A DNA stretch of 64,000 bases. Source: Malacoraja senta. Its lineage: Eukaryota. The stretch covers positions 16,990,001-17,054,000 of the forward strand of contig CM075989.1 in assembly GCA_038087875.1 (NCBI GenBank), written 5' to 3'. Position 1 is the stretch's first letter, and every line of letters begins with the position of its first letter. Positions 17,676 through 56,710 of the stretch are shown here, one piece after another. A program made the position numbers and the translations under genes. Under the pieces are notes generated by a model. The model did not search any database and had not been told where the DNA came from. It worked only from the letters and a program-made list of their open reading frames with translations.

Positions 17676-17919
17676 CGGACTTGATGGGCTGAAGGGCCTG
17701 CTTCCACACTGTATCGCAGCCTTACAATTGCTGCCTTACAGCACCAGAGACCTAGGTTTGATCCTGACTATTGGTGCTGTCTGTGTGTGTAGGATAGTGC
17801 TAGTGTGCAGGGATCGCAGGTTGGCTCGGACTTGGTGGGCTGTATCGCTAGACTAAACTAAAGCGCAAAGTTCCTACTTAAAAGAATAATGAGTGTTTTG
17901 TTATCGTCTTGCTTGAAGA

Positions 17920-20603
17920 TCAGGTATCACCCCTGCTATTTGCCCTTATGATAGAACCTTTGGCTGAAAGTATAAGAATTCATCCTAATATCCAGGGCTA
18001 TAATACTAGGGACTCAAATAATAAAATTTCATTATATGCAGACGATATACTTTTATATATTACCAAGTCACAAACGAGCATACCAAATTTATTAAATTTA
18101 ATAGAGGAATTTGGGTCCTTTTCTGGATATAGAATAAATTGGAATAAAAGTGAAATCATGACGTTAAAACCTCAAGAATCTACACACTTATTGAAGTTCC
18201 CCTTTAAAATAGCAACAGAAACATTTAAATATTTGGGTATTCAGATTACTAGAAAATATAAAGCATTATTCAATGCTAATTTTATACCTTTATTAAATAA
18301 ACTTAATATACTGATTAAATTTTGGAAAACACATCCTTTATCATTAATAGGTTGAATAAATGTTATAAAAATGATCTTTCTACCACAATTATTATACCTA
18401 TTTCAGTCTATACCAGTATATATACCAAAATACTTTTTTTTTAAATTAGACTCTAATATTACTAATTTTATTTGGGATTATAAATCACATAGAATTAAAA
18501 ATAAAACTTATGTAAACCAAAAGATGTCGGGGGACTTTCACTCCCGAATTTTTTGTATTATTATTGGGCAGTGCATATTAAGAATATAATTTATTGGTTG
18601 GACAGTTCTACCCAACAGACAGAATCAATAAAAATGGAGAAAGAGGATTGTTTTCCTTGTAATATAGGAACGATCCTCTTCTCCCCGAAAAAACTGAACA
18701 ATACAATATATAAGAAGAACCCAATTATACATGATACAATAAGAATATGGAAACAAATAAAATTATCCTTAAAATTAAGAAACTTATCATTGTTAATGCC
18801 AATAACGAATAATCCTTTATTTAAACCATCTCTTATTGATAAAACATATAATCAATGGGAAAGTTTAGGAATTAAAAGGATCGGGATATGTATGAAATGG
18901 GACATTTATTATCATTCCAACAATTACAATTAAAATTTAAATTGAAAAACAACCATTATTTTAAATATCTTCAGATTTGCGATTTCATGAAGAAATACAT
19001 ACAAGGATATCAAAAAATAACTCCTGACTTATTGGAAGAAGCAATGAATATTAAAGCTGACACAAAAATTAATATCATATTTATATAATATTTTAAATAT
19101 AGACCTACCATTGACTTAGAGAAGAGTGGGAACGGGAATTAATGATAAAAATTACGAAGGTTACATGGGGAAAGTATTTGATATACATTCACAAATGTTC
19201 GATTAATGCAAGACATAATCTAATTCAATTTAAAATTTTACATAGATTATATTATTCAAAAACAAGATTGAATAAATTCTATCCAAATATATCCCCCATT
19301 TGCGATAAGTGTTTATCCCAAAACGCAACCATAACACACTCTTTTGTTTCCTGCATAAAACTTTATAGATTTTGGAGTGATATTTTTGAAATATTTACAA
19401 AATTATTTAAGATAAGAATGGAACCTAATACTGAATTGATTATATTGAGAGTAATGGAAGATGGGAATAAATTGAATTCATCTCAAAATTTATTTTTTAA
19501 TTATGGTTTAATAATAGCAAAAAAATTAATACTTAAATTTTGGAAAAATACACCAATACCAACGCTCAAAATGTGGATTGCAAGCATTTGGATACCGCAC
19601 ATCTTGAGGAAATGCGATTCTTCCTAATAGATAAATCAGACCAATTCATAACGAGTTGGTCTCCATTAGTCGTCTTTTTGGAATCATATGGCGTCATTGG
19701 CGTCTCCCTATCATTGGCGTCTCCCTACCCTCGGTACAAGAACTGTTCCAGAGCCGCTGTCTGAAAAAAGCTCAGAGAATTTCTAAGGACAAACTGCACC
19801 CCCTCCACATACACCTGGATCTCCTGCCATCAGGCAAGAGATATCGCAGCATCAAAGCCCGGACTACAAGACTGCTAAACAGCTTCCTGCCATATGCTGT
19901 GAGGCTGCTAAACAGCCACTCTGTACTCACAGTCACCTGATTCTGCGGCTTGGCACGGACACTTTAATAACTGGCACTGGCCACTTCAATAACTGGCACT
20001 GGCCACTCAAATCAGCTGCCCCGGACATGTTTATGATTGGTTTTACTGTATTTTAACGTAGTTTTTACCTACTTTTTAACTATTTATACTGTTCCATCAG
20101 GGACTGGATTGATTTTAGTGTTATTATGTGTGAAATGTTTTAAATTTCATGTGCGATGCTCCGGTATTCCCTGGGAAACGTCTTTTCATTTTGCACTGTA
20201 CAACTGTTGCTTGCAAGATGACAATAAAGGTTGATTTGATTTGATTTGATATGGTGCAACACAATTGTAAAAGCTAATTGTCTCGGGACTGGGCGAGGGA
20301 TGGTCAAGAGTAGAAATAATGATCTCCTTACTTCTTTTTTAATTTTTTTATTTTTTACTCTCTTTTCCCCATTTTCTTTTCTTTAACTTTCTTCTTTCAT
20401 TCTTTTTTCTTCTTCTTCACACACTATATATCTCACGTTTTTCTATACTTTATTATCTAATTTCTTTTTCTTATTCTTCTTTATTATAATAAAAAAATAA
20501 GAAGCTGTACATAAAATGTATTATGAAAATATATATTAGGCACTTTGGTGCCATACGATTGTACTTACTTCTAATAAAATTAAAATAAAAAAATTTAAAA
20601 AAA
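17920..20603 (+). mobile_element. 5'-truncated AT-rich L1-clade LINE (ORF2 3' half, frameshifted) with A-rich tail
   Basis: SPLLFAL, SLYADDILLY, FGSFSGYRINWNKS, FKYLGIQIT, CDKC...THSFVSC; T-rich 3'UTR, AATAAA and A-rich end at 20573-20603. Confidence 0.92.
19692..20250 (+). mobile_element. Rex1/Babar-type LINE 3' end nested in the L1
   Basis: HPLHIHLDLLPSGKRYRSIKARTTRLLNSFLPYAVRLLN; gacaataaa + (TTTGA)n tail; TSD ATATGG (19686-19691, 20249-20254). Confidence 0.8.
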
Positions 20604-22020: not shown

Positions 22021-23350
22021 CATAGATACATAGATACATAGAAAATAGGTGCAGGAGTAGGCCATTCGGCCCTTCGAGCCTGCACCGCCATTCAATATGA
22101 TCATGGCTGATCATCCAACTCAGTATCCCGTACCTGCCTTCTCTCCATACCCCCTGATCCCTTTAGCCACAAGGGCCACATCTAACTCCCTCTTAAATAT
22201 AGCCAATGAACTGGCGTCAACTACCCTCTGTGGCAGAGAGTTCCAGAGATTCACCACTCTCTGTGTGAAAAAGTTTTTCCTCATCTCGGTCTTAAAGGAT
22301 TTCCCCCTTATCCTTAAGCTGTGACCCCTTGTCCTGGACTTCCCCAACATCGGGAACAATCTTCCTGCATCTAGCCTGTCCAACCCCATAAGAATTTTGT
22401 ACGTTTCTATAAGATCCCCTCTCAATCTCCTGAATTCTAGCGAGTATAAGCCAAGTCTATCCAGTCTTTCTTCATATGAAAGTCCTGACATCCCAGGAAT
22501 CAGTCTGGTGAACCTTCTCTGCACTCCCTCTATGGCTATAATGTCTTTCCTCAGATTTGGAGACCAAAACTGTACGCAATACTCCAGGTGTGGTCTCACC
22601 AAGACCCTGTACAACTGCAGTAGAACCTCCCTGCTCCTATACTCAAATCCTCTTGCTATGAAGGCCAACATACCATTCGCTTTCTTCACTGCCTGCTGCA
22701 CCTGCATGCCTACTTTCAATGACTGGTGTACCATGACACCCAGGTCTCGCTGCACCTCCCCATTTCCTAATCGGCCACCATTTAGATAATAGTCTGCCTT
22801 CCCGTTTTTGCCACCAAAGTGGATAACCTCACATTTATCCACATTATACTGCATCTGCCAAACATTTGCCCACTCCCCCAGCCTATCCAAGTCACCTTGC
22901 AGTCTCCTAGCATCCTCCTCACAGCTAACACTGCCCCCCAGCTTAGTGTCATCCGCAAACTTGGAGATGTTGCTTTCAATTCCCTCGTCCAGATCATTAA
23001 TATAAATTGTAAATAGCTGGGGTCCCAGCACTGAGCCTTGCGGTACCCCACTAGTCACTGCCTGCCATTGTGAAAAGGACCCGTTTACTCCTACTCTTTG
23101 CTTCCTGTTTGCCAGCCAGTTCTCTATCCACATCAATACTGAACCCCCAATACCTTGTGATTTAAGCTTGTATCCTAATCTCTTATGTGGTACCTTGTCG
23201 AAAGCCTTCTGAAAGTCCAGATACAACACATCCACTGGTTCTCCCCTATCCACTCTACTAGTTACATCCTCGACAAATTCTATAAGATTCGTCAGACACG
23301 ATTTACCTTTCGTAAATCCATGCTGACTTTGTCCAATGATTTCACCACTT
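22021..23350 (-). mobile_element. Young 5'-truncated CR1 LINE inserted in an older CR1 (21710-22020, 23351-23420)
   Basis: Uninterrupted RT ORF; (catagata)n tail at 22021-22041; flanks rejoin as ttctataagatct|tctcctcacatccttctaaattcc, the homologous CR1 segment. Confidence 0.92.
22120..23253 (-). CDS. CR1 reverse transcriptase, C-terminal 377 aa (5'-truncated)
   Basis: YLDFQKAFDKVPH, GVPQGSVLGP, KFADDTKL, RDLGV, RPHLEYC, NLWNSLP motifs. Confidence 0.9.
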   Translation of the reverse strand: MDRGEPVDVLYLDFQKAFDKVPHKRLGYKLKSQGIGGSVLMWIENWLANRKQRVGVNGSFSQWQAVTSGVPQGSVLGPQLFTIYINDLDEGIESNISKFADDTKLGGSVSCEEDARRLQGDLDRLGEWANVWQMQYNVDKCEVIHFGGKNGKADYYLNGGRLGNGEVQRDLGVMVHQSLKVGMQVQQAVKKANGMLAFIARGFEYRSREVLLQLYRVLVRPHLEYCVQFWSPNLRKDIIAIEGVQRRFTRLIPGMSGLSYEERLDRLGLYSLEFRRLRGDLIETYKILMGLDRLDAGRLFPMLGKSRTRGHSLRIRGKSFKTEMRKNFFTQRVVNLWNSLPQRVVDASSLAIFKRELDVALVAKGIRGYGEKAGTGY

Positions 23351-23454
23351 TCTTCTCCTCACATCCTTCTAAATTCCAGTAAATACAAGCCCAGTCGACC
23401 CATTCTTTCATCATATGTCAATACCGTTATTTGTTTTATATTGGCAAGTGCATA

Positions 23455-25300: not shown

Positions 25301-26726
25301 GGTCAAATATTTATTTTATAAAGCTGTACTGTTAATCTCCTGCCCTTACATTTTACACCGAGGCTAATAGTAATAAAATACACCTCCTTCACCGACTTAG
25401 ATCCACCTTCAGAGATCCTTGGACTTGTTTGCCAAAGTCCTTCCGTTTTTGCCCTACCATTCACTTGCATGATCTGATCCCCTCTGAATCCCTCTCCCCA
25501 CCCCTCTGCATTTCTCTCTACAATCACCTTTGTTCCTTCTTTGTCTACCCCACAGTAAATAAAACACCCACCTGCCATCCAAGGTATGCAGCCATCATGA
25601 TAATGCTCATGCATTGTTTAGTTTATTGTTTATTGTCACGTGTATCGAGGTACAGTCAGAAGCTTTTGTTGCGTGCTAACCAGTCAGCGGAGAGACATAG
25701 GATACAGAGACAAAGATTCCCATCTCAACATTCCTGTACTTTACGATCTTCTGTGTGGGCACATTTAATCATCTCAAATCATTTTATCTCCAGTTGGACA
25801 GACAGTGATTCACATGGACTATATGAATGGCACAAGGTCCTCCCTCCTGGATAGACACAAAATGCTGGAGTAACTCAGAGCGACAGGCAGCATCTCTGGA
25901 GAGAAGGAATGGGTGATGTTTCAGTTCGAGACACCTTCTTCAGACTGATGTCAGGAGATATGACCACGTACTCCCATCCTGGTATCTGCTCCATCAACTG
26001 TGACATTAAAGGACTTTAATCACGAAAGTGAAGTTGTGTTTGGTGCCTGTCCATGCACTGGACCGGAGCCAAAACCTTTTCCTGCCTTCCTATCCTCTCT
26101 GTCTGAGTTTCTTTGCAAGCTGGCTGCTCTTACTGAGGGAAATTTAGAGACCACTTAAAAATAATCCTCTTTTCATCTTGGGACGTCGTTGAGTTAAAAA
26201 GTCCGGAGGAAATTGTAGGAAACACTTAGTTTCCTTTACTTTTATCTAGATTTGTTGTACCTTTGTTGAAAGGTTTCCTATTGTGTAAAGCAGTCTGCAA
26301 GGCTTGTCGCATTGCTACCTAATAGACTGAGCCAGTGACCTGGTCCTTCCAGGCATCTCTCTCAATCTGAGGCTGCCACCGAGTGCACCAAAGGTTCTTA
26401 CACAGCCTGGGAGACCAGCAGCAAAGTCATACAGCATGGAAACAAGCCCTTCAGCCCAACTTGCCTACACTGACCAAGATGCCCCATCTACTCTAGTCCC
26501 ACCTGTCTGTGTGTGGCCCATATCCTTCTAAACCTTTCCTATCCATGTACCTGTCCAAATTGTCCACTGAGGCAAAGGCTGGCTAGGTCATCCCTCCCAC
26601 CAGTAGTGAGGTGATCGATGGCTTGATGGATTGCAGGCAAGTCCAGTCAGTTTCGTGTTCGTCTTCTAGGTCTGCACAAGTACTTGAGAGTCTTCAAGGT
26701 ACAACAGAAGTCTTTATTACATTACT

Positions 26727-27821
26727 TTAATGCTGGCAGCAAGGCAAGACAAGACAAAATGGCTGCCCACACAGTCTGTCTATAGACAGGATAACTATGT
26801 ACAAGACATCTCCCTTTGTCCTGTGCAGCGCCACCTGCTGCACGGGAAGAGCAACGGGTCCTCCCACCCCCCACACAGACCACCCCACACAGTCGGTGAT
26901 CGGGGCCACACCGAGCACTTCAATAGAAATGGTCTCCGCGATTTGGTCGACTGTGTTTTGCGCTTTCTTGCCCTTTCTCTGCTGTCCTACGGATTGACAC
27001 ATTACCTGGAGATTACCTTTTCGGTAACAGGCATAACAAATGGACTTGATATATGGGCACTCACGGTGATGATGAGCAGTCGAGCCGCACCGGTAGCAGG
27101 GTTTCGATCCTCTCCCCACAGGGGGACGGCTCTTCTGAAACTGTCCCACCTTCTCCGGATTTGCTCTGGGTCGATCAACTGGTTTCTGGTGTTGCGGACG
27201 AGTCTGACGAACTGTATGCACCTCCTGAGGGAGCTTCGACGCTGTTTCGCCGGCCATTTTGTGCAGTTCTTTACTCAGCAGCTCGGCCATCTTAGCACAC
27301 TGTAGCACATTCTTCAATGAAGCATTCGATTCCTTGAGAATTGCCTGCTGGATGAATGCGTGCCGGCAGCCCATGACCAGTCTATCCCGCGACGCATTGT
27401 CTTGGCACTTTTCGCAGCATTGAGTTTTAAAATCACATGCCTTTGCCTTGGTGCGAAGTTCGGTAATCGATTGCCCTTCCTGTTGCACCGTTCGGCATAA
27501 ATCAAAGCGAGCTGCGAGGAAGTTTAGACTTTCTTCGAAATGCAGCTGCAAAGCCGTTGGGATTTCAGCATATGAGGCTTCAGTTACTTCTTCTGTAAGT
27601 AAATTTTGAAGCAGTGCAAATGTTTCTGGAGACATTGAAGAACACAAGAGAGCCTTCTTACTCTGGTCAGTCGTAATTGCCATACTGTCAAAATAAAACT
27701 CAGCTCGCATTAAATGCGATGACCACCTTTCTCGCTCGGGATCAAAACGATCGAATTGCAGAAAATAGGCTCTAATCTGGGTCTTTGGACGCAATCCGAA
27801 GAATCCCACTTCTGACACCAC
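26727..27821 (-). CDS. Gag-like protein (open frame 364 codons; first ATG at 27710 gives 327 aa), C-terminus read into the LTR
   Basis: FDRFDPERERWSS...RDRLVMG; zinc knuckle CYRCGSTAHHHREC plus degenerate second CYACYRKGNLQVMC. Confidence 0.8.
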   Translation of the reverse strand: MVSEVGFFGLRPKTQIRAYFLQFDRFDPERERWSSHLMRAEFYFDSMAITTDQSKKALLCSSMSPETFALLQNLLTEEVTEASYAEIPTALQLHFEESLNFLAARFDLCRTVQQEGQSITELRTKAKACDFKTQCCEKCQDNASRDRLVMGCRHAFIQQAILKESNASLKNVLQCAKMAELLSKELHKMAGETASKLPQEVHTVRQTRPQHQKPVDRPRANPEKVGQFQKSRPPVGRGSKPCYRCGSTAHHHRECPYIKSICYACYRKGNLQVMCQSVGQQRKGKKAQNTVDQIAETISIEVLGVAPITDCVGWSVWGVGGPVALPVQQVALHRTKGDVLYIVILSIDRLCGQPFCLVLPCCQH

Positions 27822-27897
27822 TTTCGTGTTCGTCTTCTAGGTCTGCACAAGTACTTGAGAGTCTTCAAGGTACAACAGAAGTCTTTATTACATTACT

Positions 27898-28992
27898 TTA
27901 ATGCTGGCAGCAAGGCAAGACAAGACAAAATGGCTGCCCACACAGACTGTCTACAGACAGGATAACTATGTACAAGACATCTCCCTTTGTCCTGTGCAGC
28001 GCCACCTGCTGCACGGGAAGAGCAACGGGTCCTCCCACCCCCCACACAGTCCACCCCACACAGTCGGTGATCGGGGCCACACCGAGCACTTCAATAGAAA
28101 TGGTCTCCGCGATTTGGTCGACTGTGTTTTGCGCTTTCTTGCCCTTTCTCTGCTGTCCTACGGATTGACACATTACCTGGAGATTACCTTTTCGGTAACA
28201 GACATAACAAATGGACTTGATATATGGGCACTCACGGTGATGATGAGCAGTCGAGCCGCACCGGTAGCAGGGTTTCGATCCTCTCCCCACAGGGGGACGG
28301 CTCTTCTGAAACTGTCCCACCTTCTCCGGATTTGCTCTGGGTCGATCAACTGGTTTCTGGTGTTGCGGACGAGTCTGACGAACTGTATGCACCTCCTGAG
28401 GGAGCTTCGATGCTGTTTTGCCGGCCATTTTGTGCAGTTCTTTACTCAGCAGCTCGGCCATCTTAGCACACTGTAGCACATTCTTCAATGAAGTATTCGA
28501 TTCCTTGAGAATTGCCTGCTGGATGAATGCGTGCTGGCAGCCCATGACCAGTCTATCCCGCAACGCATTGTCTTGGCACTTTTCGCAGCATTGAGTTTTA
28601 AAATCACATGCCTTTGCCTTGGTGCGAAGTTCGGTAATCGATTGCCCTTCCTGTTGCACCGTTCGGCATAAATCAAAGCGAGCTGCGAGGAAGTTTAGAC
28701 TTTCTTCGAAATGCAGCTGCAAAGCAGTTGGGATTTCAGCATATGAGGCTTCAGTTACTTCTTCTGTAAGTAAATTTTGAAGCAGTGCAAAAGTTTCTGG
28801 AGACATTGAAGAACACAAGAGAGCCTTCTTACTCTGGTCAGTCGTAATTGCCATACTGTCAAAATAAAACTCAGCTCGCATTAAATGCGATGACCACCTT
28901 TCTCGCTCGGGATCGAAACGATCGAATTGCAGAAAATAGGCTCTAATCTGGGTCTTTGGACGCAATCCGAAGAATCCCACTTCTGACACCAC
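27898..28992 (-). CDS. Gag-like protein, second copy (first ATG at 28881)
   Basis: Near-identical to 26727-27821, open frame. Confidence 0.8.
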   Translation of the reverse strand: MVSEVGFFGLRPKTQIRAYFLQFDRFDPERERWSSHLMRAEFYFDSMAITTDQSKKALLCSSMSPETFALLQNLLTEEVTEASYAEIPTALQLHFEESLNFLAARFDLCRTVQQEGQSITELRTKAKACDFKTQCCEKCQDNALRDRLVMGCQHAFIQQAILKESNTSLKNVLQCAKMAELLSKELHKMAGKTASKLPQEVHTVRQTRPQHQKPVDRPRANPEKVGQFQKSRPPVGRGSKPCYRCGSTAHHHRECPYIKSICYVCYRKGNLQVMCQSVGQQRKGKKAQNTVDQIAETISIEVLGVAPITDCVGWTVWGVGGPVALPVQQVALHRTKGDVLYIVILSVDSLCGQPFCLVLPCCQH

Positions 28993-29068
28993 TTTCGGGT
29001 TCGTCTTCTAGTTCTGCACAAGTACTTGAGAGTCTTCAAGGTACAACAGAAGTCTTTATTACATTACT

Positions 29069-30052
29069 TTAATGCTGGCAGCAAGGCAAGACAAGACAAA
29101 ATGGCTGCCCACACAGACTGTCTACAGACAGGATAACTATGTACAAGACATCTCCCTTTGTCCTGTGCAGCGCCACCTGCTGCACGGGAAGAGCAACGGG
29201 TCCTCCCACCCCCCACACAGTCCACCCCACACAGTCGGTGATCGGGGCCACACCGAGCACTTCAATAGAAATGGTCTCCGCGATTTGGTCGACTGTGTTT
29301 TGCGCTTTCTTGCCCTTTCTCTGCTGTCCTACGGATTGACACATTACCTGGAGATTACCTTTTCGGTAACAGACATAACAAATGGACTTGATATATGGGC
29401 ACTCACGGTGATGATGAGCAGTCGAGCCGCACCGGTAGCAGGGTTTCGATCCTCTCCCCACAGGGGGACGGCTCTTCTGAAACTGTCCCACCTTCTCCGG
29501 ATTTGCTCTGGGTCGATCAACTGGTTTCTGGTGTTGCGGACGAGTCTGACGAACTGTATGCACCTCCTGAGGGAGCTTCGACGCTGTTTCGCCGGCCATT
29601 TTGTGCAGTTCTTTACTCAGCAGCTCGGCCATCTTAGCACACTGTAGCACATTCTTCAATGAAGTATTCGATTCCTTGAGAATTGCCTGCTGGATGAATG
29701 CGTGCCGGCAGCCCATGACCAGCCTATCCCGCAACGCATTGTCTTGGCACTTTTCGCAGCATTGAGTTTTAAAATCACATGCCTTTGCCTTGGTGCAAAG
29801 TTCGGTAATCGATTGCCCTTCCTGTTGCACCGTTCGGCATAAATCAAAGCGAGCTGCGAGGAAATTTAGACTTTCATCGAAATGCAGCTGCAAAGCCGTT
29901 GGGATTTCAGCATATGAGGCTTCAGTTACTTCTTCTGTAAGTAAATTTTGAAGCAGTGCAAAAGTTTCTGGAGACATTGAAGAACACAAGAGAGCCTTCT
30001 TACTCTGGTCAGTCGTAATTGCCATACTGTCAAAATAAAACTCAGCTCGCAT
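29069..30052 (-). CDS. Gag-like protein, third copy (327 aa from ATG; stop just upstream of the ATG)
   Basis: Near-identical copy; TGG>TGA in the upstream in-frame leader. Confidence 0.75.
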   Translation of the reverse strand: MRAEFYFDSMAITTDQSKKALLCSSMSPETFALLQNLLTEEVTEASYAEIPTALQLHFDESLNFLAARFDLCRTVQQEGQSITELCTKAKACDFKTQCCEKCQDNALRDRLVMGCRHAFIQQAILKESNTSLKNVLQCAKMAELLSKELHKMAGETASKLPQEVHTVRQTRPQHQKPVDRPRANPEKVGQFQKSRPPVGRGSKPCYRCGSTAHHHRECPYIKSICYVCYRKGNLQVMCQSVGQQRKGKKAQNTVDQIAETISIEVLGVAPITDCVGWTVWGVGGPVALPVQQVALHRTKGDVLYIVILSVDSLCGQPFCLVLPCCQH

Positions 30053-30239
30053 TAAATGCGATGATCACCTTTCTCGCTCGGGATCGAAACGATCGAATTG
30101 CAGAAAATAGGCTCTAATCTGGGTCTTTGGACGCAATCCGAAGAATCCCACTTCTGACACCACTTTCGGGTTCGTCTTCTAGTTCTGCACAAGTACTTGA
30201 GAGTCTTCAAGGTACAACAGAAGTCTTTATTACATTACT

Positions 30240-31332
30240 TTAATGCTGGCAGCAAGGCAAGACAAGACAAAATGGCTGCCCACACAGACTGTCTACAGAC
30301 AGGATAACTATGTACAAGACATCTCCCTTTGTCCTGTGCAGCACCACCTGCTGCACGGGAAGAGCAACGGGTCCTCCCACCCCCCACACAGTCCACCCCA
30401 CACAGTCGGTGATCGGGGCCACACCGAGCACTTCAATAGAAATGGTCTCCGCGATTTGGTCGACTGTTTTGCGCTTTCTTGCCCTTTCTCTGCTGTCCTA
30501 CGGATTGACACATTACCTGGAGATTACCTTTTCGGTAACAGACATAACAAATGGACTTGATATATGGGCACTCACGGTGATGATGAGCAGTCGAGCCGCA
30601 CCGGTAGCAGGGTTTCGATCCTCTCCCCACAGGGGGACGGCTCTTCTGAAACTGTCCCACCTTCTCCGGATTTGCTCTGGGTCGATCAACTGGTTTCTGG
30701 TTTTACGGACGAGTCTGACGAACTGTATGCACCTCCTGAGGGAGCTTCGACGCTGTTTCGCCGGCCATTTTGTGCAGTTCTTTACTCAGCAGCTCGGCCA
30801 TCTTAGCACACTGTAGCACATTCTTCAATGAAGTATTCGATTCCTTGAGAATTGCCTGCTGGATGAATGCGTGCCGGCAGCCCATGACCAGTCTATCCCG
30901 CAACGCATTGTCTTGGCACTTTTCGCAGCATTGAGTTTTAAAATCACATGCCTTTGCCTTGGTGCGAAGTTCGGTAATCGATTGCCCTTCCTGTTGCACC
31001 GTTCGGCATAAATCAAAGCGAGCTGCGAGGAAGTTTAGACTTTCTTCGAAATGCAGCTGCAAAGCCGTTGGGATTTCAGCATATGAGGCTTCAGTTACTT
31101 CTTCTGTAAGTAAATTTTGAAGCAGTGCAAAAGTTTCTGGAGACATTGAAGAACACAAGAGAGTCTTCTTACTCTGGTCAGTCGTAATTGCCATACTGTC
31201 AAAATAAAACGCAGCTCGCATTAAATACGATGACCACCTTTCTCGCTCGGGATCGAAACGATCGAATTGCAGAAAATAGGCTCTAATCTGGGTCTTTGGA
31301 CGCAATCCGAAGAATCCCACTTCTGACACCAC
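30240..31332 (-). pseudogene. Disrupted gag, fourth copy
   Basis: Nonsense codon at 30703-30705 and a 2-bp deletion near 30466 (unit is 1169 bp). Confidence 0.85.
31312..31331 (-). promoter_or_regulatory. Primer-binding site complementary to tRNA-Leu 3' end (also 27801-27820, 28972-28991, 30143-30162)
   Basis: TGGTGTCAGAAGTGGGATTC one base after the LTR; plus strand GAATCCCACTTCTGACACCA is the tRNA-Leu 3' terminus with CCA. Confidence 0.88.
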
Positions 31333-31569
31333 TTTCGTGTTCGTCTTCTAGGTCTGCACAAGTATTTGAGAGTCTTCAAGGTACAACAGAAGTGTTTATT
31401 ACATTACTTTAATGCTGGCAGCAAGACAAGACAAAATGGCTGCCCATACAGACTGTCTACAGACAGGATAACTATTTACAAGACATCTCCCTTTGTCCTG
31501 TGCAGCGCCACCTGCTGCACGGGAAGAGCAACGGGTCCTCCCACACCACACAGTCCACCAAACATCACA
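31333..31569 (-). repeat. 5' LTR (237 bp), TG...AA termini
   Basis: Starts TGTGATGTT next to the TSD; TAAATA TATA-like motif; ATTAAA/AATAAA signals; ends CACGAAA before the PBS. Confidence 0.9.
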
Positions 31570-33004
31570 GTCAGTCTGACCTGAGAGGAAGGGAAGTCCA
31601 CCAGTGTCACAGTTGGTCAAATAGTCAGGCACTCATCCCCTTGCGTTCTCACACCTTGTTCACTTCTCCAGCACACTGTCTCCAATTCTAGATTCAATTA
31701 GAGTCGTAGAGTCATACAACATAGAAACAGGCCCTTCAGCCCAACTTGTCCATGCTGACCAAGATGCCCATCCGTACTAGTGGCGTTGTATTCGCATTTG
31801 CTATTTTTCTGCCCAGTGGACCAGGCCATCAGTATCCTCCTGCAGTCCTTAACCATTCCTCCTCAACCACTCGACCAACTTTGGTATCACACCCCCCGAT
31901 ACATAGATCTAACTCAGTAATGTATATTATACAAAGCACTCTGTTGATGCTGAGACCTATGGAACCCATTGGCACCAGCTTCCAATTACAATAACCCCAA
32001 CAGTTGGCGCCCTTTGTCCCTCTCGCTGACCCAGTTTTACTGATCCTGATCCCATGGGCTTTGAGTATCTTGACCAGCCTGGCATGTGGATCTCATGAAA
32101 AGCCTTGCTAAAATTCCTGCCCTGCTTCACTTATAAAGGTGTCGCGAATTAACATCTTTCTCGTGTTCATTTGTTCAGTCGCTGACTGTTTAAGTTCTTT
32201 CTACAAATTGTAATCCTCTAAAACTAAGTTCAAATGGCTGCCATGGCACTGCTATCAATCTGGCCAGCTGGCACGGTAAGGAATGCTTTGGTTCCATGCA
32301 TTCTAACGGGCTCTTAAATACTTATGGACAACGTGACATTTCGAAGGATGATGAAAGTGACTACCCAGTCAAAATTATGTGGAATATTGCAGTTATGAGG
32401 GCAATAAATTCTACTGACCTTTTGCAGATCATGAATTCAAAGTTCTTCTTTAATTTAAATGTGAAGATGGAGCTCATTAACTATTGAAACACTTGCAAAA
32501 TCCCAACACTGGTGCATATTTGCAAACCTTGGTGCCTATGATCGTTTTATACTTCTTGTCAGTAAATAGTACAACTAATCATTTTCTCTCCTGTCTCCTC
32601 ACCACTCCCTCCCCCCCCCCCCTCCCCCCTTCCATCCCTTCCCACGCTGGAAAGCAGGAGTGATCCATCCGGACCTTTGAGTCTTTTCAGGACTTTATAG
32701 AGTCATAAATTCCTACAGAACAGAACCAGGCCCAACCTTCTAATTATTTGTGTATCTGTATGCCAAGTTATCTTTGATTCTCTTTTCAGGGGAACACAAC
32801 ACAATTGTTCTTCCCGTCTCAGTGGGCAAAATATCATTTATTCAAAATGAAGACCAATTCATTGACCAAGGGCTGCCTAGATTCCAAGCCATGGTAGAAA
32901 AATGAAAACAATCTTTAGAAATGTGACAATAAAATAACTGATTGCTCTTAGTTATAATAACCTCTCAAGTTCACTTGAAGTATGAATAAAACAGAGGAGG
33001 GATC

Positions 33005-50143: not shown

Positions 50144-50614
50144 CTGGCTGTGTTTTTTTCAGCTCTGCAGTTGAGAAGGATTCAAACAGCTTTTCAAGGA
50201 CGTTGTCGATGGGGAAGGAACAGAGGCAGAGGGGCTTCATGGTCTAACTTATTGTTGGACTGGTGAAACTTTTCTCTGCTCTAGGAATTCTCCACAAGGG
50301 CGGACATTCCGGAGATATTTTTCCATTGTCGAGGGTGCGGTTGTCGTTGGCGGACTGCCAAGAGTGGAGGCAACGGGAAAAAAGGCATTTTGCTCCGGCG
50401 GATGTCGGGTTTAATGTGAAGATGGTACTGTTGAGTCCGGAAAGAATGGGATAGAGCTTCCCAAAAGCTGCTGTCGGCTGTGGACGTCTTTGGGGATTTT
50501 CTGGCTGTAGCTGGAGGCTTCAGAGTTCTGCTACTTGTTGACTGTGACTATTTGAAGGAGTTAACGTGGAGCTGAGCTGCCGGGGCGATTGGAGCTGGTT
50601 GTGCCTCTGTCAGG

Positions 50615-52873
50615 ATGGCGAAGGCTGGGGCGAGGCCGAAGAACCGGAGTTACGCAGTGGCGGCATCAGAGGCGGATGCGAGGACAGTGGAGCATGAGCC
50701 TTATGTGAACTTGGATTGGGGCAGGTTTGGTATCTCGGTCCAAACTGGGCCCCAGATGTCTAGGGGTGCAATTACCAAGGCCGTGAATGACCTTATTGGG
50801 GGGCGGCCTGTTGTCTCTTCCGAGCTTGTAAGAGGCAAGGTGGAGATGATTTTGAAGACCGAGGAGGGTGTGAAAATGGCGTTGGAGAGGGGGATATCAG
50901 TGGGGGGGATCCAATTACAGGTGGATCCGTGGTTATCGAGGGTGAGACCGGTTCTCCTGCGGAGTTGCCCCACATTTATTTCGGATGCTGCACTTATGCC
51001 ACACCTGTCTACGATTGGGGAGGTGAGGTCTAAGTGCTTTAGGCTCAGGCACCTTGGGGGGGACCCGGAGGAAAGAGGGATCTTCAGTTTTAAGAGGAGG
51101 GTGTTCATGAAGGTGGGTGAGGGCGAAGGCGCGGAGGGGAGCTTTGAGGTGGATTGTCAGGGTCTCCATAGAACCGTGTATTGGAGTTGGGGGAAGGCAC
51201 GGTGTCATGAGTGTGGAGCATATGGACATTTCCGTAACGAGTGTCTTTCTCGCAGGGGCGTTGCTAGAAGTTCTAGCGTAGTGGCCCAGGATGGCAATGC
51301 TGGCCCATCCGGGGTGGTACATCATGCCTCGGTGGCGCGGGCTGGCACTGCTGACCTGGCTAGGGCGGCTAGCTCCACCTCGGGGATCCGGGGCGGAAGT
51401 GATAGGCCATCTGGGTCTGAAAGTTCTGCCTTGGGGACCCGGGGCGGGGAAGGCCTCAGGCCCCTGCGTCCTGAGACTGTGGAGGTGGTGGTGGCTAATG
51501 GTGAGGGGGAGGGAGAGGGTGGAGAGGGGGAGGATGAAGACGGGGAGGGGAAGTGGGAGGTGAAGAAGGGGAGGAAGAAGAGGGGAAAGGGCCATCCGGA
51601 GAGTAAAAATATGTGTGTTAGTTCTAGTGAGGTCCAGAGTGTGCTTGATGTGGCCCAGCAAGGCGATGAGATCGCTCAGACGGGGGAAGGGTTGGTAAAG
51701 GGTGCGGGGGGTATAGTGGATGGGGGTAGGGAGGGGGTGGAAGACCCTTCCTTTATGGAGGTCACCGTACTGCCGCATGCTAGTGGGGTGAAAAGGAATA
51801 GGCCTGGCGAGGAAGAGGAAGGGCGTGAGGCGAAAATTAGGGCAGGTGAGGGGGTTGATTCCGCTGGAGATGTGTCCTCTGGGCGGGGGGCTGTCTCTTC
51901 ATTTCAGGGGCCCTCCGATGGAGTTATCTCATCGGGTGGTGAGGTGAGCTCCCCTGGGGGTGTGTCCTCTGGGTCGGAGGATGTCCCCTCGTTTCAGAGG
52001 CCTCTTGAGGGTGATGGAACGCCAGAGGATGGGGTATGTGCCCCTGGTAGGGGGGCCCCTGAGATGGAGGATGAGCAGAGTCAGCCTGAGGGGGGTGGTT
52101 CGGGGGCTGTGGTGTTCCAGTCTATGCTGCACATCAGTGCCAGTGGTGGTAATGGGGGGTGTGCTGCATCGCCGGATGAGGTGGAAGGGGAGAGGCTAAA
52201 AGTAAGAGGCGAGCCTCTGGGTATTGCTAGTGGTGGGGATGCTATAGGTGGTGTGGAGGTCGGGGATAGTTTGGGTGGTGATGTCCCTTTAGTTTCAAGG
52301 GGTGTCAGTGTATCCCAGGCCCTGGGGGAGCCTAGTGTTTTTGCTTCCCCAGGCCAAGGCGTGGAGGGTGAGGGTAGCGTGCAGGGGCCAAGCCAGTCAG
52401 GGGGATGCTTGTTGCAGTTGGGGGTTTCGGGGCCCTTACCTGGCATTGATCCTGGGGGTGGTGTCTTGCTGGAGGAGCGGGAGGGTGAACTGGAAAGTTT
52501 GGGTAGTGGGGGTGGAGAGCTTTTGGAGAGCTCTGGGCGTTCAGTTACAGAAAGAGACCTTGAACGTTGTGATGTGGAGTCTGATGGTGCAGGTGCAAGT
52601 GCGTTGGCCGAGTGCCCAGACTCCAAGGCCGAGGCTCTTGATTGTGAGATAAAGGTGGTTCGAGAGTTTCTCAGAACAAACCGCTCCGCAAGAACAAGAG
52701 TGGATGCTGCTAGTAGGCGGTGGAAGGATCTGCCAGGATTGATTCCGATTCTCGAGGATATTCTTGGCAGCAGGGAGAGTGCTCTTACTGACGTAGAGGT
52801 GGGGCAGTTTGGGGACTTTTTGGGGTTACTCAGAGAGAAATTTGTTGTGTCTACGGGGACTGAGGGGGTTTAA
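50615..52873 (+). CDS. Tx1 ORF1 (752 aa; CCHC knuckle, long Gly/Glu/Ser-rich region)
   Basis: ATG in good context (AGGATGG); CHECGAYGHFRNEC; basic patch KKGRKKRGK. Confidence 0.9.
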   Translation: MAKAGARPKNRSYAVAASEADARTVEHEPYVNLDWGRFGISVQTGPQMSRGAITKAVNDLIGGRPVVSSELVRGKVEMILKTEEGVKMALERGISVGGIQLQVDPWLSRVRPVLLRSCPTFISDAALMPHLSTIGEVRSKCFRLRHLGGDPEERGIFSFKRRVFMKVGEGEGAEGSFEVDCQGLHRTVYWSWGKARCHECGAYGHFRNECLSRRGVARSSSVVAQDGNAGPSGVVHHASVARAGTADLARAASSTSGIRGGSDRPSGSESSALGTRGGEGLRPLRPETVEVVVANGEGEGEGGEGEDEDGEGKWEVKKGRKKRGKGHPESKNMCVSSSEVQSVLDVAQQGDEIAQTGEGLVKGAGGIVDGGREGVEDPSFMEVTVLPHASGVKRNRPGEEEEGREAKIRAGEGVDSAGDVSSGRGAVSSFQGPSDGVISSGGEVSSPGGVSSGSEDVPSFQRPLEGDGTPEDGVCAPGRGAPEMEDEQSQPEGGGSGAVVFQSMLHISASGGNGGCAASPDEVEGERLKVRGEPLGIASGGDAIGGVEVGDSLGGDVPLVSRGVSVSQALGEPSVFASPGQGVEGEGSVQGPSQSGGCLLQLGVSGPLPGIDPGGGVLLEEREGELESLGSGGGELLESSGRSVTERDLERCDVESDGAGASALAECPDSKAEALDCEIKVVREFLRTNRSARTRVDAASRRWKDLPGLIPILEDILGSRESALTDVEVGQFGDFLGLLREKFVVSTGTEGV

Positions 52874-55800
52874 TAAAGTGGGCCTTTACATTCACCGTCG
52901 CAACATTAAACTTAAACGGGAGTAGATCGAGTTTTCGTAGATTTCAGCTTTTATCAGGCCTTAAAGAGGGGAGATTTGCAGTGTGTTTTCTGCAGGAGAC
53001 GCACACAGTTGTTAGTGATGAACCTACCTGGAGACTGGAGTGGGAAGGGGGGGTTTACATGAGCCATCTCAGCTCAAATTCGAGTGGGGTGGCCTTTCTG
53101 TTGGCCCAGAATTTCCTGCCAACGATTTTAAAAGTGAATGAAGTTGTGCCTGGACGTTTGCTCCATCTGGCAGTGAGCTTGGATGGCATGCCGTTGCATT
53201 TCATTAACGTGTATGCCCCTAGCTCCAGCACGATGCAGGCTGGCCTAATTCAGGAGGTGACTGCTCTGTTGAGCACTATTGATAGGGGAGAGTGTGTTTT
53301 CCTTGGTGGGGACTTTAATTGCACACTTGAGGCGGGAGATCGTTCTGGTACTCAGTGTGCCCCTGCTGTAGCGAAGAAGTTGAGGGGGATGATTGAATCC
53401 TTTGAGTTGGTTGATGCATGGCGGAACCTCCATCCGGATTCCAATGCTTTTTCGCGGAGGTATGAGGGTGGTGGTTCCCGTATTGACAGAATATATATTT
53501 CCCGAGCGTTTGTTGGCCGTGTCGCAGAGGCTTCAATGCGGGTGGTGCCATGCTCGGATCACTGTCTGGTGCGTGTGGACTTTAATCCGGCGCGCGCTAG
53601 GGCTGGGTCCGCGTACTGGCACTTTAACAACCGGTTGCTGGAGGATCGGTGTTTCCGGGAGTCATTCAGTCGGTTTTGGGGGAAGTGGAGAGAGGGGCGG
53701 AGGTGCTTCTCTTCCCTTAGGCAGTGGTGGGATGTGGGGAAGGCTCACATTCGTCTATTTTGTAAGGAGTATACGTGGGGGTCGACAGGACGGAGGGACT
53801 CAGCGGTCGCGAGGCTTGAGAGGGAGCTACAGGGTGCAGAGTCTCGCCTGGGTCGGGATGGTGAGGACTCCTGTGAATGGGGAGAGTTTCAGGAGAAGAA
53901 GGAAGCCTTGAGGAATCTGCTGCTTGAGCGGTCCCGAGGCGCTTTCGTGAGGGCGCGGGTACAGATGATGCAAGATCTGGACCGAGCGTCGCCTTTCTTT
54001 TTCTCTTTGGAGAAAGGGAGGGGAGCCTGCAAGCAGCTCGTAGAGCTGCTCGCAGATGATGGATCCTCAGTCACTGATCCGGAGAGGATCAGTGAGGAGG
54101 TCAGGTCATTTTATGGGTCCCTGTTCTCCGCAGGGGGGTATAACGGGGAGGCTCAGAAGGAATTGTGGGAGGGTCTACCGACTATTGATAGGGAGGTGGC
54201 CGATCTTCTTGATGGCCCCTTATCTTTGGAGGAGTTGACTTGTGCATTGTTTCAGCTCAGGAAGGGTAAGTCACCCGGGATGGATGGGTTGACGGTGGAG
54301 TTTGTCAGAGCTTTCTGGGAGATCCTGGGGGGTGATTACATGTTGGTGCTGGGGGAGAGTCTGGCGGCCGGGGCGATGCCCCTCTCGTGGCGTAGGGCAG
54401 TTGTTGTCTTGCTGCCTAAGAAGGGTGAACTCCGCTTGTTGAAGAACTGGAGGCCGGTATCTCTCCTATGTACAGAATATAAAGTATTTGCACGGGCAAT
54501 GGCAAATCGCCTGGGCCCTGTGCTGTCTCAAATGATTCATCCTGACCAGTCCTATACAGTCCCTGGCAGGTCCATTCAGGATAACATCCACCTGGTTAGG
54601 GACCTGATTCATCTAGTTCAGGGTACTGGTCAGTCAGCTGCTTTTCTGTCTCTTGATCAAGAGAAGGCTTTTGATAGGGTAGAGCATGATTACCTATTCG
54701 GGACGTTGCAAGCGTTTGGATTTGGACCGCATTTTGTGGCCCGGGTCCGGCTTCTGTACGCTGCAGCGGAGTGCCTGGTGAAGGTTAATGGTGCGTTGTT
54801 GGCTCCCTTTCAGTTTGGGAGGGGGGTCCGTCAGGGGTGCCCCATGTCGGGTCAGTTGTACTCGGTCTGTGTGGAGCCGTTCCTGTGTCTTCTTCGGAGG
54901 AGGTTGACAGGTCTGGCCCTACCTGGGCCGGGGTTGGAGGTGGTTCTCTCAGCGTATGCAGATGATGTACTTCTTATGTTCACTGATCCTGGTGACCTGC
55001 GGAGGATGCGTGACTGCCAGGAGATTTTCTCAGCTGCATCTTCTGCAAGGATTAACTGGAGTAAGTGTTCTGGTCTTTTAGTGGGTCAGTGGCAGGTGGA
55101 TTCCCTGCCGGAGGAGATGGCAAGGTATGTGTGGAGCACAACCCATCTCCTCTATCTGGGGGTTTACCTGAGTCCCACTGAGGATGCTTGGCCGGCGAAT
55201 TGGCTGGAGTTGGAGACGAAGGTGGTTGCCCGGCTGGGTCGCTGGTCGGGCTTGCTTGGAGTTCTTTCTTTTCGGGGGAGGGTGCTGGTCATAAATCAGC
55301 TGGTGGCCTCCATGTTATGGTACCGGCTGGCTACTCTTGTCCCACCTTCCATATTTGTAAATGCTCTTCAGAAGAAGCTGGTAGATTTCTTCTGGGGAAA
55401 TAGGAAGCACTGGGTCTCTGCAGCGGTCCTGAGTCTCCCGTTAGAGGAGGGCGGTCAGTCCTTGGTATGCGTGCGTACCCAGGTGGCGGCTCTCCGTCTC
55501 AGGACTCTGCGGAGGTATATGTATGAAGAGAATCCCCCCAGATGGCACGCTCTGGCCACGTATTTTTTTCGTCGTGGTCGTTGCCTAGGGGGGGTCTCGC
55601 GGCTCCCGGTGGCGGGCATCAGTAGACCCGCCCTAAGGGGTTTGCCTGTTTTCTATCGGGATGTGATCAGAGTGAGGAATTTGGTTGTTTTCAGCCAGCG
55701 TGTTGTTCCACGAGGGGAGGGGGATGGTGCGGATGCGGGAGTGGCCGGTCCTCGCCCAGTCATGGCGGGTGTCGAGGAGAGGCGAGCGCCTAGAGTGGTT

Positions 55801-56586
55801 CTGGCTGAGCTTTCAATTGCTCCGTCAGATCTGCTCATCGGGCCAAGGCTCCGGGATATTTCTCGGGAACCGGCTCCACACAACCTGAGCCGCCTTTCTG
55901 AGATGATCAGCATACCGTTTCGTGATGCGAAGAGACGCACATTGTATAGGATGTTCCTGCACATTCTGCACCTCCTTGCCTTTGTTTCCCGTCCTGACAC
56001 ACCTTGGCGGACGGTGTTACCACCTGATGGTGGGGGGGGTCCCTGGTGGGGGTCCTTCTATGAGGGAGTTGTTCCCCTTTACATTGGGGACCTGGGGTGG
56101 AGACTGTTGCATGGAGCGGTGGTTTGCAATAAACTTTTGAGTCGGTTCACGGGTTCGTCTGCCGCGTGTATTTTCTGTGGCAAGGAAGAAACCGTGTTCC
56201 ACGTATACATGGAGTGTGAGAGGTTACTGCCCCTGTATCAATATCTGAAGGGGTTGTTCCTTAAGTTCTGGTTGCATTTTAGTCCCACGATTCTAGTGTG
56301 TGGGCATAAGGTAGGGTGTGGGGAGAGCCAAGTGGGGGGTTGGGACCTCCCTGTCGGTTTGCTCCTGGGCCTGGTTAAGATGGCCATTCGTGGGTCCAGG
56401 CAGCGGGCGGTCGATGGTGAGGCGAGAGTTGGCTGCCTGCCCCTCTTCCGGGCGTACGTCCGTGCACGGGTGTCCCTGGAGCGGGAATATGCGGTGTCCA
56501 CGGGGACTCTGGAGGCCTTCCGTGGGCGATGGTCACCACGTGGGGTGGAGAGTATAATAAATCATGAATGTAATGTTGTACTATAA
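52873..56586 (+). CDS. Tx1 ORF2: APE endonuclease + reverse transcriptase + Cys domain (start uncertain, non-AUG)
   Basis: Frame open from 52864: TVATLNLNG, FLQETH, GGDFN, SRIDRIY, SDH; KSPGMDG, WRPVSLL, DQEKAFDRV, GVRQGCPMS, YADD, YLGV; CIFC...HVYMEC. Confidence 0.95.
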   Translation: MKWAFTFTVATLNLNGSRSSFRRFQLLSGLKEGRFAVCFLQETHTVVSDEPTWRLEWEGGVYMSHLSSNSSGVAFLLAQNFLPTILKVNEVVPGRLLHLAVSLDGMPLHFINVYAPSSSTMQAGLIQEVTALLSTIDRGECVFLGGDFNCTLEAGDRSGTQCAPAVAKKLRGMIESFELVDAWRNLHPDSNAFSRRYEGGGSRIDRIYISRAFVGRVAEASMRVVPCSDHCLVRVDFNPARARAGSAYWHFNNRLLEDRCFRESFSRFWGKWREGRRCFSSLRQWWDVGKAHIRLFCKEYTWGSTGRRDSAVARLERELQGAESRLGRDGEDSCEWGEFQEKKEALRNLLLERSRGAFVRARVQMMQDLDRASPFFFSLEKGRGACKQLVELLADDGSSVTDPERISEEVRSFYGSLFSAGGYNGEAQKELWEGLPTIDREVADLLDGPLSLEELTCALFQLRKGKSPGMDGLTVEFVRAFWEILGGDYMLVLGESLAAGAMPLSWRRAVVVLLPKKGELRLLKNWRPVSLLCTEYKVFARAMANRLGPVLSQMIHPDQSYTVPGRSIQDNIHLVRDLIHLVQGTGQSAAFLSLDQEKAFDRVEHDYLFGTLQAFGFGPHFVARVRLLYAAAECLVKVNGALLAPFQFGRGVRQGCPMSGQLYSVCVEPFLCLLRRRLTGLALPGPGLEVVLSAYADDVLLMFTDPGDLRRMRDCQEIFSAASSARINWSKCSGLLVGQWQVDSLPEEMARYVWSTTHLLYLGVYLSPTEDAWPANWLELETKVVARLGRWSGLLGVLSFRGRVLVINQLVASMLWYRLATLVPPSIFVNALQKKLVDFFWGNRKHWVSAAVLSLPLEEGGQSLVCVRTQVAALRLRTLRRYMYEENPPRWHALATYFFRRGRCLGGVSRLPVAGISRPALRGLPVFYRDVIRVRNLVVFSQRVVPRGEGDGADAGVAGPRPVMAGVEERRAPRVVLAELSIAPSDLLIGPRLRDISREPAPHNLSRLSEMISIPFRDAKRRTLYRMFLHILHLLAFVSRPDTPWRTVLPPDGGGGPWWGSFYEGVVPLYIGDLGWRLLHGAVVCNKLLSRFTGSSAACIFCGKEETVFHVYMECERLLPLYQYLKGLFLKFWLHFSPTILVCGHKVGCGESQVGGWDLPVGLLLGLVKMAIRGSRQRAVDGEARVGCLPLFRAYVRARVSLEREYAVSTGTLEAFRGRWSPRGVESIINHECNVVL

Positions 56587-56663
56587 TGATGTGGTTTGAT
56601 ATAATGTATCTTAGATTATGTATTGATGTGATGTATCATTGAGTGTGTTGAATAAAGTTTTTG

Positions 56664-56710
<47 letters not shown>

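Follow-up and report, generated by a model that had tools for sequence, protein, structure and literature searches.

A locus-specific gag remnant of a decayed Ty3/Gypsy element in Malacoraja senta, probably multiplied in place into a four-unit tandem array

How a single retrotransposon insertion can come to hold four nearly identical gag-bearing units, and whether such an array has become a gene, a satellite or neither, are questions raised by a locus on contig CM075989.1 of Malacoraja senta (GenBank assembly GCA_038087875.1, positions 16,990,001 to 17,054,000; this whole 64,000-nucleotide stretch is referred to as the window). On the minus strand, one whole long terminal repeat (LTR), named W5, is followed by four repeats of a primer-binding site (PBS), a gag remnant and a truncated LTR, in the order I4-d4, I3-d3, I2-d2 and I1-d1. 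The array derives, by deletion at this one locus, from a Ty3/Gypsy family that is old and decayed, and is most likely an ordinary neutral repeat rather than a recruited gene. The preferred explanation, to which a probability of about 0.8 is given, is that a dead Ty3/Gypsy copy, having lost the stretch from the end of gag to LTR base 17, was multiplied in place from one unit to four by unequal crossing-over, with no selection on gag detected.

The layout proposed in an initial annotation of the window, LTR-(PBS-gag-LTR)x4 within one GTCAG target-site duplication (TSD), is borne out by the block starts, the PBS positions and the flanking GTCAG copies (Table 1). The LTR-like blocks are spaced at 1171, 1171, 1171 and 1169 bp, a PBS adjoins four of the five, and the internal PBS-gag units of approximately 930 bp each alternate with single shared LTRs. 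A single TSD, a 5-bp match with a chance probability of approximately 0.001, encloses the entire array, with none at the inner junctions. Double insertion at one site is ruled out by this lack of a TSD between units, and retrotransposition of the whole array by the absence of a polypurine tract (PPT) and the presence of only one whole LTR. The joint between 27821 and 26651 was not counted as proof of a tandem, since any copy in the family would have such an LTR-PBS junction. As had been claimed, the units are nearly identical and carry distinguishing single-nucleotide polymorphisms (SNPs), with pairs differing by 11-16 substitutions per 1171 bp and one 2-bp indel, or approximately 1%.

Table 1. 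Components of the array and their positions in the window (plus-strand coordinates)
Feature	Position	Strand	Description
TSD, left copy	26646..26650	none	GTCAG
d1	26651..26891	-	Truncated LTR at the 3' end of the array, without its first 17 bp; terminus ...CGAAA
I1	26892..27821	-	Internal unit: PBS 27803-27820, leader with gag start-codon deletion (junction 27761/27760), gag remnant, GAC microhomology joint to d1
I1 open frame	26727..27710	-	327 codons from an internal ATG; final 55 codons are LTR-derived read-through
d2	27822..28062	-	Truncated shared LTR
I2	28063..28992	-	Internal unit: PBS 28974-28991; frame of 327 codons (28881 down to 27898) opened by an internal ATG; recombinant, I1-type 5' and I4-type 3'
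d3	28993..29233	-	Truncated shared LTR; two SNPs in common with d4
I3	29234..30163	-	Internal unit: PBS 30145-30162; stop 30065-30067 upstream of internal ATG; 327-codon frame below; recombinant pattern as in I2
d4	30164..30404	-	Truncated shared LTR
I4	30405..31332	-	Internal unit: PBS 31314-31331; premature stop 30703-30705 ahead of the zinc knuckles; 2-bp deletion further on
W5	31333..31569	-	Sole whole LTR (5' LTR), 237 bp; TG...AA termini shared with the other family members
TSD, right copy	31570..31574	none	GTCAG; flank beyond is single-copy in the genome

The element lies on the minus strand, which makes the LTR at the right its 5' LTR, and the array of the initial annotation stands with its orientation corrected. 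The four downstream LTRs listed there are present but incomplete, each lacking the first 17 bp and carrying a 14-bp duplication at its junction with gag. The seven or more differences claimed between the 5' LTR and the others are found as five substitutions and two indels over 220 aligned bases, and the two private SNPs shared by d3 and d4 are likewise confirmed. All five substitutions are private to W5 and, taken alone, therefore give no date for the expansion. A family motif that is probably TATA-like is altered in all five LTRs.

The unit is defined by deletions that set it apart from the remainder of the family. In every unit gag ends in ...CACCGAC and is joined directly to LTR base 18, with GAC on both sides of the joint and 14 bp of LTR duplicated just beyond it, while protease, PPT and LTR tip are missing. 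The reported absence of pol and PPT is thus accurate; relatives continue past gag into protease-side sequence, and most have a PPT and a 3' LTR. A second deletion has taken leader sequence and the gag ATG, which is present in 23 of 26 relatives and in none of the four units. All units also share a 12-bp in-frame deletion in gag, as well as a histidine to asparagine change in the second zinc knuckle that occurs in three relatives too. The initial annotation had proposed a search for the same deletion derivative at other loci. In the 1.94 Gb genome the gag-LTR junction was matched only at the four array positions (best 40 of 99 candidates), and the start-codon-deletion junction was likewise confined to the array (best 40 of 136 candidates). 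A copy without a PPT and the 3' LTR tip cannot undergo normal reverse transcription and integration, which suggests that the gag-LTR junction is a chromosomal repair scar formed after insertion.

A search with one unit as query placed the array within its parent family. Among the best 40 of 569 candidates, which were the ones scored, 39 other loci match PBS and gag at 85-92%, with the match stopping at the gag end. Twenty relatives (L031-L050) were fetched with their flanks; in all 20, similarity breaks off at gag and gives way to protease-side sequence, and 19 have a 3' LTR and PPT inside the fetched stretch. As read in their translations, the relatives encode a gag with two CCHC knuckles and a VDTG protease motif in the same frame, and long copies continue with reverse transcriptase (RT), then RNase H and then integrase. 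In one of these, L032, Pfam domains RVT_1 and RT_RNaseH_2 are followed by Integrase_H2C2 and rve, with no Pfam hit for protease; this long copy also carries an internal duplication of its RT-RNase H part. The family thus shows the protease-RT-RNase H-integrase order, LTRs, PBS, PPT and 5-bp TSD of Ty3/Gypsy elements. Its LTR termini are TG...AA rather than the canonical TG...CA; the ends were placed by TSDs, and of the 13 relatives in which both ends were called, 10 have a perfect 5-bp TSD exactly at them. The RT relatives are named K02A2.6-like. With single-frame Gag-Pol elements of that type the relatives share gag, knuckle and pol order, and they differ by their TG...AA ends and in that all examined copies are broken. 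Two CCHC knuckles in Gag are a feature of the Mag clade, to which the family may belong, and its PBS is presumably of the tRNA-Leu type. No tRNA gene was found in the 64-kb window. The relatives' gag matches PF14893 (PNMA); for the gag frame in the window, Pfam returned nothing beyond a weak DUF7041 match (E 0.06). Structure prediction from a 28-row alignment was of low confidence (predicted local distance difference test score, pLDDT, 60; predicted template modelling score, pTM, 0.31), Foldseek against the PDB returned nothing at E <= 0.001, and no conclusion is drawn concerning the fold.

That the family is old is shown by LTR pairs that have diverged by 2-7% (mean 5.2% in 14 copies) and by the finding of an unbroken gag in none of 26 relatives. 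Fifteen of the 20 fetched relatives (L033-L035, L037-L046, L049 and L050) belong to a short form without RT and integrase, approximately 2.25 kb in length without later inserts and organised as LTR-PBS-gag-protease-RNase H fragment-PPT-LTR; one, L036, is intermediate with RT only, and four have integrase sequence. The RT-deletion junction of the short form is spanned by all 40 scored loci (best 40 of 203 candidates), which indicates that this gag-protease form was itself mobilised. The nearest relative of the array in the gag tree, L005/L031 (support 98/93), keeps integrase. The pol deletion proposed in the initial annotation therefore holds as far as pol is absent, with its size left uncertain: given that most fetched relatives already lack RT and integrase and that the nearest one has integrase sequence, the loss could be approximately 0.9 kb or 3-4 kb. 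Two family copies, L013 and L017, lie approximately 135 kb apart on opposite strands, with two gag differences and the same 5' flank; they probably represent a segmental duplication in inverted orientation, or else a duplicate introduced by the assembly.

The order in which the units arose was examined by polarising variants against the 26 relatives. I1-I3 carry the derived state at unit position 106, I2-I4 carry it at positions 499 and 791, and d3 and d4 have it at both LTR SNPs. In a two-unit array composed of I4 and I1, mispairing by one unit and an exchange between 106 and 499 would produce, in the middle, a unit whose pattern is precisely that of I2 and I3, and the polarised sites fit what unequal exchange predicts. 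The history began with the insertion of an element with TG...AA ends, which left a 5-bp TSD. The start-codon deletion, the 12-bp gag deletion and the GAC-microhomology junction with its local duplication are common to all units and would have been acquired before the units multiplied. The two LTRs, by then 930 bp apart, may have mispaired to yield a two-unit array with a shared LTR; the exchange within gag would have added a hybrid as the third unit, and this hybrid, together with its two-SNP LTR, would have been copied in another exchange, giving four. The units have since gained changes, stops included, in neutral proportions.

A one-step origin has also to be considered, in which circular or concatemeric cDNA was amplified by a rolling circle and inserted as a ready-made tetramer. 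The differences between units are mostly private and the pairwise gag distances nearly equal, at 9-10, as such an origin would have it. This account, however, requires a whole 5' LTR while all others are truncated, and is at odds with recombinant units in the positions expected of them and with a stem of 0.025 in the gag tree carrying neutral changes common to all units; it is regarded as very unlikely. More improbable still is an assembly artefact, in which one unit or two alleles were laid out four times. Only short contigs were available in the read data and none spanned the array. Nevertheless, there are four distinct haplotypes, 11-16 substitutions and one indel apart; a long interspersed nuclear element (LINE) in the window has identical copies elsewhere, so that base accuracy is high and noise of 1% in the assembly can be discounted; and two contigs with array-type alleles in run X1 had depths of 114 and 135 against 22 for the single-copy flank, bearing in mind that the depth is rough and that X1 may be the assembly's own sample. 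Taken together, the haplotypes, the exact LINE copies and the raised depth make an artefact extremely unlikely.

In the gag tree the common stem of the units measures 0.025 and their tips 0.004-0.006, which assigns the expansion to roughly the final fifth of this copy's existence; their root-to-tip distance of 0.030 compares with a median of 0.035 for other copies. The claim that insertion and deletion came first and stepwise expansion after is upheld by this ratio of stem to tips and by the mosaic of polarised sites; the LTR divergence on which it also drew is private to W5 and does not by itself date the expansion. At a vertebrate substitution rate of 2.2e-9 per year, the 0.5-0.7% accumulated per lineage would make the expansion at least about 2-3 million years old, and any ordinary vertebrate rate would put it at about 2 million years or more. 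Whereas array units differ by approximately 1%, the young LINE in the window is matched without a difference over 301 bp by 10 further copies. The expansion is thus late in the element's history, and not recent as had been suggested. A dating based on the epaulette shark rate of 7e-10 per generation, as given in the accessible part of its source (PMC10587355), would require 7-10 million generations, which is implausibly long, and was not adopted. In another organism (run X3), one contig bridges 38 bases of LTR tip and 106 bases of single-copy flank, and the insertion is accordingly older than that split. In runs X4 and X5, from two further organisms, the contigs start at 31574 and 31568 and carry 49 and 36 letters, respectively, that do not align, which makes an empty site probable there, although it was not seen directly; run X2 had no contig covering the right flank.

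Selection on gag was assessed with singleton changes in 25 other dead copies as the neutral baseline, L017 having been left out as a near-identical twin of L013. Since duplication the units have gained 6 synonymous and 13 non-synonymous changes (two stops included), and the common stem carries 4 and 13. The pooled 10/26 agrees with the baseline of 100 synonymous to 250 non-synonymous changes (28% and 29% synonymous, P = 1.0). For the pooled changes an omega of 0.3 is rejected (P = 0.0004) and one of 0.5 marginally so (P = 0.03), while the post-duplication changes alone reject only omega <=0.3 (P = 0.02). The purifying selection expected of a domesticated Gag was therefore not detected, and an omega <=0.5 is rejected, with 36 changes remaining compatible with weak constraint such as 0.84. 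Stops and frameshifts since duplication number 3, with 2.0 expected. The neutral outcome that the initial annotation had listed among its options is in agreement with these counts and with lesions at the neutral rate.

Several observations weigh against the preferred explanation. Site 300 misfits the crossover series unless back-mutation or conversion is allowed. No other shared-LTR tandem was found in the family, the exact pattern giving 0 matches against 57 for LTR-PBS and 85 for PPT-LTR, so the event is rare here; the unusually short distance between LTRs that the deletion left is the likely reason why the array stands apart in its family. Below the internal ATG, I1-I3 are free of lesions, compared with none of the 25 other copies (mean 3.2 lesions), an outcome with a chance of approximately 0.08-0.12 in a calculation that ignores that the locus was chosen for its open frames. 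Finally, the downstream LTRs have 0-1 derived substitutions in common where a long single-copy phase predicts 3-5 (P 0.004-0.16), so that how long this phase lasted and which LTR gave rise to the truncated one are not settled. This gives room to another neutral account, in which a microhomology-mediated tandem duplication copied the 5' LTR (from base 15-17) together with gag, LTR-LTR recombination later removed the protease-to-PPT stretch, and the truncated LTRs descend from the 5' LTR. The near absence of common derived substitutions is what it predicts, and all five window LTRs carry five states that are rare among 28 other LTRs. Those states may, however, be subfamily variants already there at insertion, and W5 has five private substitutions against 1.3 expected since the first duplication (P = 0.011), so that descent of the truncated LTRs from W5 is considered unlikely.

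The most consequential alternative is co-option, according to which an N-terminally shortened Gag with a 55-residue LTR-derived tail, made from three units, would be a dominant-negative restriction factor comparable to Ty1 p22 and DRT2, amplified in dosage under weak selection and at an early stage of domestication. The initial annotation had reported that three of the four units keep a long gag frame and had raised co-option itself. The frames exist only from an internal ATG situated approximately 17 codons into the frame: all four units have lost the native start codon, I3 has a stop upstream, and 327 codons ending in the LTR-derived tail are kept by I1-I3. The retention of these frames in three of four units, with no lesion-free gag among the other copies, would suit a protein product. 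It would also suit co-option that an LTR end lies at the orthologous site in a second organism, where only the LTR-flank junction was seen, and that DRT2 is itself weakly constrained, with a dN/dS of 0.84 in the accessible portion of its description (PMC10951436), with which the array counts are compatible. Conversely, the unit behind the sole whole LTR, I4, has a stop and a frameshift and is reduced to 172 codons from the internal ATG, the second zinc knuckle is altered, the presumed TATA-like motif is changed in every LTR, and gag changes are neutral in proportion. The family that such a factor would restrict looks long dead, judging from its broken gags and diverged LTR pairs. With the start codon lost and both the synonymous to non-synonymous ratio and the post-duplication lesions neutral, co-option is not sustained and is held to be very improbable.

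Comparison with known systems places the array more precisely. Shared-LTR arrays within one TSD are a known product of ectopic LTR recombination, as described in the available text of a Drosophila survey (PMC5932611), and a study of sugar beet, in the sections accessible, gives 97 tandem copies of non-autonomous elements (terminal-repeat retrotransposons in miniature, TRIMs) with 3-21 LTRs and the TSD kept in 73 of the 97, along with families having only gag or gag and protease (PMC13570524). The skate array has the same LTR-(internal-LTR)n organisation in one TSD. Unlike these tandems, its shared LTRs are 5'-truncated, its PPT is gone, its unit is a locus-specific deletion product and its host is a cartilaginous fish. 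The non-autonomous plant elements known as TR-GAG, which the accessible text of PMC8704663 defines and shows to transpose, resemble the array in having LTRs around a gag-only or gag-protease internal region (PMC8704663; PMC13570524, as far as the available parts go). A TR-GAG has two LTRs and a Gag open reading frame and can transpose, whereas the array is found at one locus, without two whole LTRs with PBS and PPT, without a Gag start of its own (0/4) and without dispersed copies of the same deleted form. The short gag-protease relatives, whose copies are dispersed, fit TR-GAG much better. Gag-derived restriction factors have been described for Ty1 p22 and DRT2 (in the portions available of PMC4599808 and PMC10951436), and the array resembles them in having a Gag fragment that starts at an internal ATG in a relic element. 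DRT2, according to the same partial text, is intact in all 40 carrier strains, transcribed and tested (PMC10951436); in the array, by contrast, the frames break among the four units, and no living target turned up among the family copies analysed. The array therefore belongs to the shared-LTR tandem class and not to TR-GAG, and does not show the selection expected of a domesticated gag. Non-canonical LTR ends reported for plants comprise TT, GA, TA and AA-CA, and TG...AA is not among them in the text available (PMC5659011). In the literature covered, which left most subscription papers and Repbase/Dfam outside, no description was found of this element, of skate LTR tandems, of co-opted tandem gag or of TG-AA ends, and what turned up on non-autonomous gypsy/gag elements in cartilaginous fish was of a general kind.

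Other elements occur in the same window. An apparently intact LINE, presumably of the Tx1/L1 clade, occupies 50576-56707. Its open frames, 765 and 1240 codons long, include endonuclease, RT and zf-RVT domains, and a stretch of poly(A) spans 56670-56707. When 301 bp of it served as a probe, 11 exact matches including the probe itself were obtained, with all 40 scored matches at 98% or above, which suggests that this LINE family is active or was so very recently. A CR1-type RT frame and fragments of an L1-like element are located at 22120-23358 and 17882-19627; the closest named relatives of the CR1 protein come from skates and rays, with Leucoraja erinacea at 88-93% over partial matches. No host exon was identified in the window, although no systematic exon search was made.

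Only co-option, which is unlikely, would matter widely: the array would then be a vertebrate equivalent of the restriction factors p22 and DRT2 of yeast. The parent family, with its TG...AA ends and a mobilised gag-protease derivative at no fewer than 40 loci in a cartilaginous fish, is a modest gain for annotation. The term emerging satellite, used in the initial annotation, is apt only as a label for four copies, in which no sign of further growth was found. The array is nonetheless a natural record of an LTR element turning into a short tandem array, with the exchanges still legible in its SNPs, and it may show repeat biologists, in a vertebrate, how the path from transposon to satellite begins.

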